A DNA stretch of 64,000 bases from Escherichia coli (lineage in GTDB: Bacteria > Pseudomonadota > Gammaproteobacteria > Enterobacterales > Enterobacteriaceae): NCBI RefSeq assembly GCF_003334315.1, contig NZ_QOWR01000012.1. The stretch is one strand, 5' to 3'. Of the stretch, positions 18,098-24,240 are shown one piece after another. Position 1 is the first letter of the stretch; each line of letters begins with the position of its first letter. The translations under genes were made by a program, and so were the position numbers. Below the pieces are notes generated by a model. The model saw only the letters and a list, made by a program, of their open reading frames with translations, made no database searches and was not told where the DNA came from.

Positions 18098-19051
18098 TTA
18101 ACCTATCTCCTGTAACGCGTGTCTCTGGCGTTCGACGATATTGGTCCACAAATTGTCTTTATCGTCAGTCCATAAATTAATCAGCAAGGCAAAAAAGCGT
18201 TCTGCTGCTGGAGAAAGTACGGCATCTTTACGGCGAATTATTCCCAATGTTCGACGTATAACGGGTTCCACCAATGGGATACCAATAATCGAAGAATAGG
18301 GCGCATGAGGCATTGCCAGGCCAGGAAGCGCCGAAATCCCCAGTCCCGCCTCCACCAGTCCTAATGACGTCGAAAGATGACGCACTTCGTAAAACCAGTC
18401 CAGCTTCCAGGGCTTGTCGGCTAGCTGTTGTTCTATCAACAGTCGGTTGCCGCTGGAGGAGCGTACGCCAATCATTTTGTAACCCACTAACTCCTGCCAT
18501 TCTACAAGCTGCTTTTTGGCCAATGGATGGTCACGCCGACAGGCCAGCACGAACGGCTCGTTGACCAGTGGGGTAAAATCAATGGATGAATTTGTGACGT
18601 TGTTCATGTTTATGCCAAAGTCTGATTCGTTACACAGCACCGATTCCATGCAATTATTCGTGCCTTGTTCCAGAATCCGCACTTTAATATTGGGATACAG
18701 CTCATTAAATTTACCGATTGCCAGCGGTAAAAAATAAAATACTGCGGTCGGAATACACGCTAACGTCACCATACCACGATGATAAGCATTCATATCACGA
18801 ATATTAAAAAGCGTTTCATCGAATTTCTTTATTAATTCCCGCGCCTCCGGGAGCAACCTTTTTCCTGCTTTTGTTAACGTAACCTTGCGAGTTGTACGCT
18901 CAAATAGTTGAATATGTAAATCTTCCTCCATCTTTTTTATTCTTCGCGTTAATGCAGGTTGCGTAATATTGAGTAATTTAGCGGCATTGTTAAACGAACT
19001 GGACTCTACCAGTATGACAAATGCCTTCATACTTGATAATTCATGCTTCAT
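18098..19051 (-). CDS. ybhD: LysR-type transcriptional regulator
   Basis: ORF trimmed to MKHELSSMKAFVILVESSSFNNAAK (317 aa), N-terminal HTH; divergent from ybhH. Confidence 0.88.
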   Translation of the reverse strand: MKHELSSMKAFVILVESSSFNNAAKLLNITQPALTRRIKKMEEDLHIQLFERTTRKVTLTKAGKRLLPEARELIKKFDETLFNIRDMNAYHRGMVTLACIPTAVFYFLPLAIGKFNELYPNIKVRILEQGTNNCMESVLCNESDFGINMNNVTNSSIDFTPLVNEPFVLACRRDHPLAKKQLVEWQELVGYKMIGVRSSSGNRLLIEQQLADKPWKLDWFYEVRHLSTSLGLVEAGLGISALPGLAMPHAPYSSIIGIPLVEPVIRRTLGIIRRKDAVLSPAAERFFALLINLWTDDKDNLWTNIVERQRHALQEIG

Positions 19052-19095
19052 TATTACTCCGGAAAATGGAAGCGACGATTTTGGGTGGCTGGCCG

Positions 19096-19108
19096 TTAAA
19101 AATTTTAA
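19096..19108. promoter_or_regulatory. Candidate LysR-type box (T-N11-A palindrome ttaaaaattttaa) in the ybhD/ybhH intergenic region
   Basis: Perfect dyad between divergent ybhD and ybhH. Confidence 0.35.
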
Positions 19109-19234
19109 CTGCATTTAGCCAACTTAAATTAATGAAAAAATGTTATTAATCGTTGAGCTAAAGTCATTAGAGATGCTTTGCCCTTAATGTAACCATATCG
19201 CAATAAGTTATGTTTTTAAATTGAGGGCATTATT

Positions 19235-20287
19235 ATGAAAAAAATACCCTGCGTGATGATGCGAGGTGGAACCTCGAGGGGCGCGTTCCTGTTAGCGGAA
19301 CATTTACCCGAAGATCAAACGCAGCGCGATAAAATATTGATGGCAATTATGGGTTCCGGTAACGATCTGGAAATTGACGGTATTGGCGGCGGTAATCCAC
19401 TGACCAGTAAAGTCGCCATTATTAGCCGTTCCAGCGATCCGCGTGCTGATGTCGATTATCTGTTTGCGCAGGTAATCGTTCATGAGCAACGTGTCGATAC
19501 CACGCCTAACTGCGGCAATATGCTGTCTGGTGTTGGGGCATTCGCCATTGAAAATGGTTTGATTGCAGCGACTTCGCCAGTTACTCGCGTACGTATCCGC
19601 AACGTCAATACGGGTACGTTCATCGAAGCTGATGTGCAAACGCCAAATGGTGTTGTCGAGTACGAGGGTAGCGCCAGAATTGACGGCGTACCGGGTACTG
19701 CCGCACCGGTTGCGCTCACTTTCCTGAATGCCGCCGGAACCAAAACCGGAAAAGTTTTCCCGACTGATAATCAGATTGATTATTTTGACGATGTCCCGGT
19801 GACCTGTATCGATATGGCGATGCCAGTCGTCATTATTCCGGCTGAATATCTGGGAAAAACAGGTTATGAATTACCGGCGGAACTGGATGCCGACAAAGCA
19901 TTATTAGCCCGCATTGAATCTATCCGTCTACAAGCGGGTAAAGCAATGGGCTTAGGTGATGTCAGTAATATGGTTATCCCTAAACCTGTGCTTATTTCTC
20001 CAGCGCAGAAAGGCGGGGCAATTAATGTGCGTTATTTTATGCCGCATTCTTGCCATCGCGCGCTGGCGATAACCGGTGCTATTGCTATTTCCAGTAGTTG
20101 TGCATTGGAAGGCACCGTCACCCGACAAATCGTCCCTTCTGTAGGATACGGCAATATCAATATTGAACACCCCAGTGGTGCGCTCGACGTTCATTTAAGT
20201 AATGAAGGTCAGGATGCCACGACGTTACGCGCATCTGTTATTCGGACGACCAGAAAAATATTTTCCGGTGAAGTTTATCTTCCCTGA
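19235..20287 (+). CDS. ybhH: PrpF/AcnD-accessory family isomerase
   Basis: 350-aa ORF recognised as YbhH; family assignment from established knowledge. Confidence 0.88.
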   Translation: MKKIPCVMMRGGTSRGAFLLAEHLPEDQTQRDKILMAIMGSGNDLEIDGIGGGNPLTSKVAIISRSSDPRADVDYLFAQVIVHEQRVDTTPNCGNMLSGVGAFAIENGLIAATSPVTRVRIRNVNTGTFIEADVQTPNGVVEYEGSARIDGVPGTAAPVALTFLNAAGTKTGKVFPTDNQIDYFDDVPVTCIDMAMPVVIIPAEYLGKTGYELPAELDADKALLARIESIRLQAGKAMGLGDVSNMVIPKPVLISPAQKGGAINVRYFMPHSCHRALAITGAIAISSSCALEGTVTRQIVPSVGYGNINIEHPSGALDVHLSNEGQDATTLRASVIRTTRKIFSGEVYLP

Positions 20288-21796: not shown

Positions 21797-21798
21797 AT

Positions 21799-21925
21799 AT
21801 ACTCGTCATACTTCAAGTTGCATGTGCTGCGTTTGCGTTCGCTCACCCCAGTCACTTACTTATGTAAGCTCCTGGGGATTCACTCACTTGTCGCCTTCCT
21901 GCAACTCGAATTATTTAGAGTATAT
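21799..21925. repeat. ERIC (IRU) element, 127 bp
   Basis: Contains cgctcaccccagtcacttactt and atgtaagctcctggggattcac (the two classic ERIC core sequences); terminal inverted repeats caagttgca/tgcaactcg. Confidence 0.85.
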
Positions 21926-21978
21926 CCATTTATTATCTTTCTGCGCACTTCACGGTGCGCAGATATCTGGAGCATTTG

Positions 21979-24240
21979 ATGATCAAGTTATCTGAAAAAG
22001 GCGTGTTTCTCGCCAGTAATAACGAAATAATTGCCGAAGAACATTTCACCGGCAAAATTAAAAAAGAAGAAGCCAAAAAAGGCACTATTGCCTGGTCTAT
22101 TCTCTCTTCTCATAATACGTCCGGAAATATGGATAAACTTAAAATTAAGTTTGATTCATTAGCCTCTCACGATATTACCTTTGTTGGTATTGTACAGACC
22201 GCTAAAGCGTCCGGAATGGAACGTTTCCCGCTGCCGTATGTGCTGACCAACTGCCATAACTCACTCTGCGCCGTCGGCGGCACCATTAACGGTGATGACC
22301 ATGTTTTTGGTTTATCGGCAGCTCAGCGTTATGGCGGTATTTTTGTGCCTCCGCATATTGCGGTCATCCATCAATATATGCGTGAGATGATGGCAGGCGG
22401 CGGCAAAATGATCCTCGGGTCAGACAGCCACACCCGTTACGGTGCATTAGGGACAATGGCAGTCGGTGAGGGCGGCGGTGAGTTGGTAAAACAGCTGCTT
22501 AATGACACCTGGGATATCGACTATCCGGGAGTTGTTGCGGTGCATCTGACCGGAAAACCAGCGCCGTATGTGGGGCCGCAGGATGTGGCGCTGGCTATCA
22601 TCGGTGCCGTGTTCAAAAACGGCTACGTCAAAAACAAAGTGATGGAATTCGTAGGTCCCGGTGTTGCTGCGCTCTCTACCGATTTCCGTAACAGCGTTGA
22701 CGTTATGACCACTGAAACGACCTGTTTAAGTTCTGTCTGGCAAACCGATGAAGAAGTCCATAACTGGCTGGCGCTGCACGGTCGCGGCCAGGATTACTGC
22801 CAGCTTAACCCTCAACCGATGGCGTACTACGATGGCTGCATCAGCGTTGATTTAAGCGCCATCAAACCAATGATTGCGCTGCCGTTCCACCCGAGCAACG
22901 TGTATGAAATCGACACACTGAACCAGAACCTGACCGACATTCTGCGTGAGATTGAAATTGAGTCCGAACGCGTGGCGCACGGTAAAGCCAAACTCTCGCT
23001 GCTGGATAAAGTGGAAAATGGTCGCCTGAAAGTGCAGCAGGGGATTATCGCGGGCTGTTCTGGCGGTAACTACGAAAACGTCATCGCGGCGGCGAATGCA
23101 CTGCGCGGTCAATCCTGTGGCAATGACACCTTCTCGCTGGCAGTTTACCCGTCATCACAGCCGGTGTTTATGGATCTCGCCAAAAAAGGTGTGGTAGCAG
23201 ATTTGATTGGCGCAGGCGCAATCATCAGAACCGCGTTCTGCGGCCCATGCTTTGGCGCGGGCGATACGCCAATCAACAACGGATTAAGTATTTGCCACAC
23301 CACGCGCAACTTCCCGAACCGCGAAGACTCTAAGCCAGCTAATGGGCAGATGTCAGCGGTGGCGTTGATGGACGCTCGTTCTATCGCTGCGACTGCGGCA
23401 AACGGTGGCTATTTAACCTCTGCCAGCGAACTTGATTGCTGGGACAACGTGCCGGAGTACGCCTTCGATGTAACGCCGTATAAAAACCGTGTTTATCAGG
23501 GCTTTGTGAAAGGGGCAACTCAGCAACCGCTGATTTACGGACCGAACATTAAAGACTGGCCGGAATTGGGTGCGCTGACTGACAATATCGTCCTGAAAGT
23601 GTGCTCGAAGATCCTCGACGAAGTGACCACCACCGACGAACTGATTCCTTCCGGTGAAACCTCTTCTTATCGTTCAAATCCGATTGGTCTGGCGGAGTTT
23701 ACCCTGTCACGCCGCGATCCCGGTTATGTTGGCAGAAGTAAAGCGACTGCTGAGCTGGAAAATCAGCGTCTGGCGGGGAATGTCAGCGAGCTGACAGAGG
23801 TGTTTGCGCGCATTAAGCAGATTGCTGGTCAGGAGCATATTGATCCGCTGCAAACTGAAATTGGCAGCATGGTATATGCGGTGAAACCAGGCGATGGTTC
23901 TGCGCGTGAACAGGCGGCGAGCTGCCAGCGTGTGATTGGCGGTCTGGCGAATATTGCCGAAGAGTACGCGACTAAACGCTACCGTTCTAACGTCATCAAC
24001 TGGGGGATGTTACCGCTGCAGATGGCGGAAGTGCCAACCTTTGAAGTGGGGGATTACATTTACATCCCTGGCATTAAAGCGGCGCTGGATAATCCGGGTA
24101 CGACGTTTAAAGGTTATGTGATCCATGAAGATGCGCCGGTAACGGAAATTACGCTCTATATGGAAAGTCTGACTGCTGAAGAGCGCGAGATTATCAAGGC
24201 GGGTAGTTTGATTAACTTCAATAAAAACCGTCAGATGTAA
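21979..24240 (+). CDS. ybhJ: Aconitase-family (Fe-S hydro-lyase) protein
   Basis: ORF trimmed to MIKLSEKG (753 aa); aconitase-like Cys motifs (AGCSGG, CGPCFG). Confidence 0.88.

Follow-up and report, generated by a model that had tools for sequence, protein, structure and literature searches.

The ybhD-ybhHIJ cluster of Escherichia coli as a possible LysR-repressed module for the use of trans-aconitate

What are the genes ybhD, ybhH, ybhI and ybhJ of Escherichia coli for? They lie side by side in the DNA analysed here (contig NZ_QOWR01000012.1 of assembly GCF_003334315.1, a stretch of 64,000 nucleotides, hereafter the window), in the E. coli chromosomal order modC-ybhA-pgl-ybhD-ybhH-ybhI-ybhJ-ybhC-ybhB-bioA. 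The ybhD-ybhHIJ cluster is already annotated and has been partly studied, and its observation as such is not new. A preliminary description of the window had placed here a LysR-type regulator divergent from isomerase, transporter and aconitase-family genes. Open reading frames (ORFs) were found at the limits it gave, the family models were matched, and ybhD lies on the minus strand against ybhHIJ on the plus strand. Its remark that no physiological role is settled also holds, as the one direct study that we found names no substrate (PMC9068703). The four genes are as follows.

18098-19051, minus strand: ybhD, LysR-type regulator of 317 amino acids, equal in length to K-12 b0768
19235-20287, plus strand: ybhH, PrpF-superfamily 1,3-allylic isomerase of 350 amino acids, proposed aconitate isomerase
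20363-21796, plus strand: ybhI, DASS-family anion transporter of 477 amino acids, proposed tricarboxylate importer or antiporter
21979-24240, plus strand: ybhJ, aconitase-family Fe-S hydro-lyase of 753 amino acids, proposed genuine aconitase

The divergent ybhD/ybhH gap measures 183 bp, and spacers of 75 bp and 182 bp separate ybhH from ybhI and ybhI from ybhJ. With lengths of 317-753 amino acids and family E-values down to 0, the four are not chance ORFs.

We propose that ybhD-ybhHIJ may have been acquired horizontally and may serve, under repression by its LysR regulator, in the use of aconitate isomers. The likeliest of these is trans-aconitate of plant origin, which grasses contain in abundance and which acts as an inhibitor of aconitase. 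YbhI, a relative of CitT, would bring the tricarboxylate in, probably by exchange for a C4-dicarboxylate. YbhH would convert trans-aconitate to cis-aconitate by a 1,3-allylic proton shift, with Lys59 and Cys93 as the acid-base pair. YbhJ, as a mitochondrial-type four-domain [4Fe-4S] aconitase of the gut-anaerobe kind, would then hydrate cis-aconitate to citrate or isocitrate, and citrate could pass to the unlinked citrate lyase CitDEF (yielding oxaloacetate and acetate) or into the tricarboxylic acid cycle. YbhD would hold the operon off until an effector, presumably the substrate, is present. We give the whole model, with trans-aconitate uptake by YbhI, isomerisation by YbhH, hydration to citrate or isocitrate by YbhJ and repression by YbhD, an even chance of being right. 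Slightly short of an even chance is what we allow for a cryptic route in which a third genuine E. coli aconitase, of gut-anaerobe origin, acts with YbhH and YbhI to ferment dietary trans-aconitate via citrate lyase. The analysis itself establishes which genes are there, their families, the catalytic residues that are kept and the genes around the orthologues. We infer the substrate, the reaction order, the antiport and the citrate-lyase link, and take the repression by YbhD from the literature.

YbhJ scored 1533 bits on PRK11413 ("hydratase") and contains the Pfam domains Aconitase (residues 41-470) and Aconitase_C (638-684). On the AcnD model TIGR02333 (cut-off 1419.85) it scored only 63.1 bits, and it likewise stayed below the cut-offs of the clostridial aconitase model PRK07229 (338 bits vs 612) and of TIGR01342. 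The best Foldseek matches of its AlphaFold 2 model (predicted local distance difference test score, pLDDT, 88.6) were full-length mitochondrial aconitases (E = 3e-47; template-modelling score, TM, 0.69), and in the model YbhJ folds into four domains, the C-terminal one being a swivel domain. When YbhJ was aligned with pig mitochondrial aconitase (mAcn), whose active-site residues we take to be those of the crystallographic literature, the [4Fe-4S] ligands C360, C421 and C424 aligned with mAcn C358, C421 and C424, bearing out the statement of the preliminary description that the cysteine ligands are retained. YbhJ also retains S641, H93, H131, D149-S150-H151, E246, R443, R448 and R643; the mAcn residues kept in this way are the base Ser642, His101, His147, Asp165-Ser166-His167, Glu262 and Arg447/452/644. 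The gamma-carboxylate-binding Arg580 of mAcn is matched to R565 by TTDxxxPxG-x5-R spacing and the family alignment only, and the Arg580 region was left unaligned when the C-terminal part of YbhJ was searched with phmmer against the PDB. Clade-wide changes relative to mAcn are Gln72 to His64, Asp100 to Cys92, Asn258 to Val242, Asn446 to Thr442 and Ser643 to Ala642. All 22 active-site positions checked, the clade-specific residues included, were without variation among 80 orthologues including that of E. coli. We consider it probable that YbhJ is a true aconitase.

The company that YbhJ keeps in other bacteria bears on its substrate. One genome per species was scanned, giving at least 596 YbhJ loci, of which the best 80 were examined. 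Three of these, from Enterobacteria, have the full ybhDHIJ order; the other 77 come from gut or rumen anaerobes (Lachnospiraceae, Enterocloster, Hungatella, Clostridium, Blautia, Butyrivibrio, Megasphaera, Synergistales, Erysipelotrichaceae and Collinsella), whose full-length orthologues are 66-73% identical to E. coli YbhJ. Neighbours were counted at the 53 non-enteric, non-Collinsella loci, where neighbouring ORFs were clustered and the clusters named by NCBIfam. A citrate synthase (CS) and/or isocitrate dehydrogenase (IDH)-type gene adjoined YbhJ in 18 of the 53, mostly in the same direction; the typical order was YbhJ>CS>IDH, the genes standing a few to 80 bases apart, and the citrate synthase neighbour scored 590 bits on NF010635 (cut-off 426). 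Citrate lyase genes (citD/E/F) were found nearby in 8/53 loci, often together with citC and citG, with the citF neighbour at 645 bits (cut-off 501) and citD and citC above their cut-offs too. A PrpF-family gene was near YbhJ in just five of the 53; as a rule, the YbhJ family does without such a partner. In a distance tree, CS/IDH-linked and citDEF-linked YbhJ proteins were mixed, and the enteric proteins were sister to all of them. The simplest reading of these sequences is that many gut anaerobes would use the YbhJ clade as their working aconitase and that the catalytic site of E. coli YbhJ would be the same. Since its usual partners are CS, IDH and citrate lyase, YbhJ would therefore be an ordinary aconitase rather than a methylcitrate-type dehydratase.

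In three of the eight lyase loci, all in Firmicutes, a PrpF-family gene, a MatC/CitMHS carrier, YbhJ and citrate lyase genes occurred together. The locus of Lachnospiraceae JC7 (L071) contains a divergent LysR gene followed by PrpF, carrier, YbhJ, citD, citE, citF, citC and citG; that of Lacrimispora amygdalina (L018) has a divergent LysR gene, carrier, PrpF and YbhJ, with citF, citG and citC downstream. The third (L061) reads carrier, PrpF, YbhJ, and its contig ends after citE. L071 and L018 have the E. coli layout with the downstream enzyme, citrate lyase, added. In Klebsiella aerogenes (L003, 4865-22286), the ybh module adjoins the citrate-fermentation genes citAB-oadGAB-citS-citC and has an additional CitMHS transporter gene in its ybhI-ybhJ interval. 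The E. coli citCDEFXG-citT genes lie elsewhere on the chromosome, unlinked to ybhDHIJ. Trans-aconitate would most simply be the compound that reaches citrate by way of an allylic isomerase and then an aconitase. Gene context thus suggests aconitate as the substrate, and the earlier opinion that the substrate cannot be read from sequence was too pessimistic. That a tricarboxylate is imported and then worked on by an isomerase and a hydro-lyase remains a sound idea; however, isomerisation probably precedes hydration, whereas AcnD acts before PrpF.

A paralogous clade, 41-48% identical to YbhJ, was seen at L009 (199-10202), L055 (9265-14669) and L069 (6362-8698). A PrpF-family gene and another aconitase, of PRK07229 type, accompany the paralogue at L009 and L055, and an Iso_dh-family dehydrogenase is also present at L009. 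From its gene content, this clade looks like a separate tricarboxylate pathway. The metagenomic proteins P0148, P0152, P0209, P0217 and P0229 (alignment A1), 31-38% identical to YbhJ, have lost the CGPC motif and the Asp-Ser-His triad and are probably derived members of the family without catalytic activity.

YbhH is 100% identical to PDB entry 6OTV, "putative isomerase YbhH", and its own structure is thus solved; its orthologues match PF04303. On NF033377 (the LigU/GalD oxalomesaconate family) it scored 515.2 bits, above the cut-off of 440, and on the PrpF model TIGR02334 it reached 186.9 bits, below the cut-off of 440.55. Identity to plasmid-borne prpF genes was 32-34%. The AcnD/PrpF likeness put forward in the preliminary description is real at the level of superfamilies, but it breaks down at the level of families for both enzymes, and there is no prpB or prpC nearby. 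Lys59 (in PLTSKVA) and Cys93 (in NCGN) of YbhH correspond to the positions that carry mutations in the oxalomesaconate isomerase structures 6P3H and 6P3K, and the pair was kept in all 17 homologues compared. We take these two entries to be LigU of Novosphingobium. Identity between YbhH and the solved oxalomesaconate isomerase was 45%, and 3-methylitaconate isomerase (PDB 3G7K) was matched at E = 1.7e-67.

In a neighbour-joining tree of 17 sequences, built without support values, YbhH grouped with transporter-linked proteins of Rhizobium and Pseudosulfitobacter, apart from the LigU group. The nearest non-enteric relative, 57% identical, is on a Rhizobium plasmid (L091, 6971-11720) in a unit of LysR gene, isomerase and ABC transporter that contains no hydratase or aldolase. 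A Pseudosulfitobacter plasmid homologue (L094, 2779-7074; 48% identical) follows tripartite tricarboxylate transporter genes, with tcuAB nearby. Homologues of similar identity from Sphingobium and Azospirillum lie inside ligK-isomerase-ligJ-ligAB clusters, and the proteins linked to ligK, ligJ and ligAB form a separate clade that holds the solved oxalomesaconate isomerase. A ligJ/galB hydratase, a ligK/galC aldolase and a ring-cleavage dioxygenase were absent at the E. coli, Klebsiella and Edwardsiella loci. On a Bacillus thuringiensis plasmid, a PrpF-domain gene, whose isomerase product is 42% identical to YbhH, is followed by a DMT transporter gene; this pair is probably the tbrAB trans-aconitate operon. 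The L091 and L094 genes carry the name "4-oxalomesaconate tautomerase" without any lig or gal partners. These contexts suggest that the family name is over-extended, and the transporter-linked YbhH clade is likely to be systematically mis-annotated under it.

YbhI scored 553.9 bits on the DASS model TIGR00785 (cut-off 198.6) and is 33% identical over its full 477 amino acids to CitT, the E. coli citrate:succinate antiporter; its K-12 annotation is "putative tricarboxylate transporter". In Edwardsiella tarda (L001, 8483-9915) the ybhI orthologue consists of two overlapping ORFs, an apparent frameshift pseudogene, with ybhD, ybhH and ybhJ intact.

YbhD gave full-length matches to many LysR-type transcriptional regulator models and reached no specific equivalog cut-off; its orthologues contain PF00126 and PF03466, and GGAG stands 5 nt upstream of the ybhD ATG. 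In a ybhD deletion ybhH was strongly upregulated by RNA-seq, with no substrate named, showing that YbhD is a repressor (PMC9068703). The same study also reports a ChIP-exo site and a malate-dependent growth effect and cites control by Nac. Conservation in the promoter region was read from an alignment of five species (A4: E. coli, E. albertii, Citrobacter and two Edwardsiella), and the gap contains the following elements, none of them assigned to a strand.

19096-19108: near-perfect dyad TTAAAAATTTTAA (T-N11-A), found in Escherichia only
19128-19150: candidate YbhD operator, ATTAAT-N11-ATTAAT, with a putative T-N11-A LysR box inside
19160-19170: conserved block AAAGTCATTAG, with no variation in A4
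19187-19196: conserved block ATGTAACCAT, with one variable position only (C in Edwardsiella tarda)

The candidate operator lies 85-107 bp 5' of the ybhH ATG. Across the five species the first of its half-sites is unchanged, as is the AATC within the second, and the N11 spacing is kept. The blocks AAAGTCATTAG and ATGTAACCAT could be a second regulator site and/or promoter elements, judging by their conservation. The dyad at 19096-19108 was rejected as the main operator, being kept in E. albertii and not in Citrobacter or Edwardsiella. Consensus searches for FNR, CRP, ArcA and Nac sites in the two regulatory gaps gave nothing convincing, and counts in a promoter/terminator consensus scan were not above those in shuffled sequence.

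The remaining elements of the locus lie in the spacers and beyond the end of ybhJ.

20327-20347, no strand assigned: 21-nt palindrome TTCTGTATGA-G-TCATACAGAA, inside the 75-bp ybhH-ybhI spacer
21797-21925, no strand assigned: complete enterobacterial repetitive intergenic consensus (ERIC) repeat, or intergenic repeat unit (IRU), between ybhI and ybhJ, with a 26-nt terminal inverted repeat
21940-21963, plus strand: GC-rich hairpin of 9-10 bp, just 5' of the ybhJ ribosome-binding site, with no T-run after it
24250-24470, no strand assigned: array of repetitive extragenic palindromes (REP) or bacterial interspersed mosaic elements (BIME) between the convergent ybhJ and ybhC, with many nested inverted repeats

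The arms of the palindrome are conserved in E. albertii and its centre is altered. With no T-run 3' of it, the palindrome does not qualify as a canonical terminator; it may form an RNA hairpin or bind a protein. No intrinsic terminator was found between ybhH and ybhJ in the consensus scan. Both ERIC PCR primer sequences, as we believe them to read, match 21797-21925 exactly, and the 196-nt stretch 21790-21985 that contains the ERIC had a folding z of -5.1. Only E. coli and E. albertii have the ERIC; the ybhI-ybhJ spacer of Citrobacter, Edwardsiella and Klebsiella lacks it and measures 55-85 bp. Given these short ERIC-free spacers in relatives and no terminator-like site, ybhHIJ is likely to have been an operon ancestrally. 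The REP/BIME array is likely to mark the 3' end of the ybhJ transcript, and one copy of the REP-derived Rfam family naRNA4 within it scored 60.7 bits (gathering threshold 59.5). The Rfam scan of the locus gave no riboswitch or leader, the only matches being naRNA4 and a sub-threshold Vibrio AS5 over the ERIC.

The module is widespread in E. coli. ybhDHIJ was present at 80% query coverage or more in 5235 of 5426 complete genomes, where the genes are annotated ybhD/ybhH/ybhI/ybhJ. Its different chromosomal settings, seen when the loci of other Enterobacteria are included, show that it moves as one unit. GC content is 0.41-0.49 across ybhDHIJ vs 0.52-0.55 in the flanks. The lowest value, 0.41, falls over 18500-19500 (ybhD and the start of ybhH) and is consistent with a foreign origin of ybhDHIJ. 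Two gene starts were corrected. An extension of the ybhD ORF to an ATG at 19114 is not the annotated start, and the real limit is 19051. GTG 21955 was ruled out as the start of ybhJ in favour of ATG 21979; PRK11413 aligns with residues 9-761 of the longer ORF, and K-12 b0771 is equal in length and spacing to ybhJ started at 21979.

YbhH and YbhI of the window are identical to the K-12 sequences. The window ybhJ differs from that of K-12 by 37 nucleotides and 5 residues, among them R439C and G450D (window codons at 23293-23329). These positions are R and G in 79/80 orthologues and flank the substrate-binding Arg443 and Arg448, and the variant protein may be impaired. The window allele was matched by 9 of 5371 complete E. 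coli genomes.

Several points weigh against a role in aconitate use. The link between ybhDHIJ and aconitate is drawn from sequence and gene context, and we know of no growth of E. coli on trans-aconitate. The residue at mAcn Asp100 is Cys throughout the sequences of the YbhJ clade. NCBIfam places YbhH, above cut-off, as an oxalomesaconate tautomerase equivalog. Most YbhJ orthologues are without an isomerase neighbour, and the Firmicute PrpF partners are 36-39% identical to YbhH and belong to another subclade; the argument from them is therefore one of analogy, not orthology. The gaps searched yielded no FNR, ArcA or CRP site to link the operon to anaerobiosis. In Blank et al. 2002, acnA acnB mutants are said to have been glutamate auxotrophs, and inactivation of ybhJ reportedly left the residual aconitase activity unchanged. 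The phenotype of the ybhD deletion concerns malate, and the regulation cited is by Nac; neither indicates aconitate (PMC9068703). YbhJ has also been called a "catalytically inactive" paralogue (PMC4054840).

The family assignment of YbhH points to an oxalomesaconate route, in which YbhH would be a true LigU/GalD-type isomerase and YbhJ would stand in for the LigJ/GalB hydratase, the product being 4-carboxy-4-hydroxy-2-oxoadipate from imported gallate or protocatechuate ring-cleavage products. Oxalomesaconate is a tricarboxylate, the oxalo-analogue of aconitate, and the high NF033377 score of YbhH is joined by its 45% identity to the solved oxalomesaconate isomerase and the shared Lys/Cys pair. 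However, ligJ/galB, a ligK/galC aldolase and a dioxygenase are all missing from the locus, and genuine LigU genes sit inside ligK-ligU-ligJ-ligAB clusters, whereas YbhH falls in another clade with transporter-only contexts. The active site of YbhJ, moreover, is that of the citrate synthase/IDH-linked aconitases. We regard this route as improbable. Unlikely, too, is that the pair serves another unsaturated acid in the manner of the 3-methylitaconate isomerase and dimethylmalate dehydratase of nicotinate fermentation, with itaconate, citraconate, mesaconate or a methyl- or homo-aconitate as its substrate. Citrate-lyase-like enzymes can be citramalate lyases, and the paralogous clade beside PrpF and Iso_dh genes may take another substrate. 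YbhH does match 3G7K strongly, and one database calls the Edwardsiella YbhJ orthologue "2,3-dimethylmalate dehydratase large subunit". Such substrates sit poorly with R565 (the Arg580 equivalent) and all other carboxylate-binding arginines being unvarying, with lyase neighbours that exceed the citF, citD and citC equivalog cut-offs, and with the same YbhJ enzyme clade occurring in CS/IDH operons.

The order implied by the preliminary description, in which YbhJ would dehydrate an imported hydroxy-tricarboxylate and YbhH would then isomerise the product, seems to us very unlikely. The superfamilies are the same and isomerase and hydro-lyase are transcribed in one direction, but the AcnD and PrpF scores (63 bits vs 1420 and 187 vs 440.6) and the missing prpB/prpC neighbours argue against it. 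Most YbhJ orthologues lack a PrpF partner, and the Firmicute loci feed the product to citrate lyase, which indicates hydration towards citrate. Another view would see the cluster as a cryptic or decaying remnant without catabolic function in E. coli, with YbhJ inactive or non-enzymatic (acting in stress or regulation). The naming of YbhJ as a "catalytically inactive paralog" fits this view, as do the H2O2 sensitivity and low NADPH of a ybhJ mutant (PMC4054840). So do the window allele, with R439C and G450D at positions conserved in 79/80 orthologues, the frameshifted ybhI of one Edwardsiella tarda strain and the ERIC inserted in the operon. Set against these are an intact cluster in 5235/5426 E. 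coli genomes, a K-12 allele in which every catalytic residue is kept, and a variant allele confined to 9/5371 genomes; we think a remnant quite improbable. The claim of inactivity reportedly rests on a knockout examined in aerobic cells without induction, in which the operon would have been repressed.

If the trans-aconitate model is true, four conserved E. coli y-genes gain a concrete, testable role, and E. coli has a third aconitase, with consequences for acnAB phenotypes, for Fe-S and oxidative-stress work and for metabolic models. YbhJ could no longer be regarded as an inactive paralogue, and the NCBI "oxalomesaconate tautomerase" family would partly consist of aconitate isomerases. An aconitate module shared horizontally by gut Enterobacteria, Firmicutes and Actinobacteria would then be a niche trait of the herbivore and omnivore gut. 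The bare database name "hydratase", for what is apparently the main aconitase of many gut anaerobes, is likely to be a database problem.

Among characterised systems with an aconitase-superfamily enzyme paired with a PrpF-superfamily isomerase is AcnD/PrpF of the 2-methylcitrate cycle in Shewanella (PMC5690661). AcnD is AcnA-like and about 860 amino acids long, whereas YbhJ is mitochondrial-type; the neighbours of ybh are pgl and ybhC, not prp genes, and the proposed reaction order is the opposite. YbhJ resembles mAcn (PDB 5ACN/7ACN) in its full-length four-domain fold (TM 0.69), its three Cys ligands and most catalytic residues, but it is only 21% identical, and it has about 110 residues more than the clostridial aconitases of PRK07229, which are about 645 amino acids long. 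LigU/GalD (PDB 6P3H/J/K) is the closest solved homologue of YbhH besides YbhH itself, with the same Lys/Cys pair and 1,3-allylic shift; LigU/GalD occurs with ligJ, ligK and ligAB, whereas YbhH stands beside a transporter and an aconitase and on a separate branch.

The proposed sequence from aconitate through citrate to citrate lyase, in an anaerobic gut setting, is also found in the gut anaerobe Acidaminococcus fermentans, where conversion of trans-aconitate to citrate, oxaloacetate and pyruvate is biochemically established according to Hartel & Buckel 1996 as cited in PMC3035267. In its genome, the neighbour of a MatC carrier is an "aconitate hydratase domain protein" (PMC3035267), an arrangement also seen in L018, L061 and L071. 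A homologue search for a YbhJ-type aconitase in Acidaminococcus returned only Megasphaera proteins. The A. fermentans pathway is known biochemically and its genes by annotation; in E. coli the citrate lyase is unlinked. The tar system of Bacillus velezensis FZB42 consists of a divergent LysR gene (tarR), a PrpF-superfamily aconitate isomerase (tarA) and an importer (tarB) (PMC11495376). The ybh cluster shares with it the divergent LysR gene, a PrpF-superfamily isomerase as first gene of the operon, a co-operonic importer and the proposed substrate. However, TarB belongs to the major facilitator superfamily and YbhI to DASS, TarR activates whereas YbhD represses, and the tar system is without a dedicated aconitase. 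The functional reading of ybhD-ybhHIJ is thus new relative to the known trans-aconitate systems in its transporter family, its dedicated anaerobe-type aconitase and its repressor.

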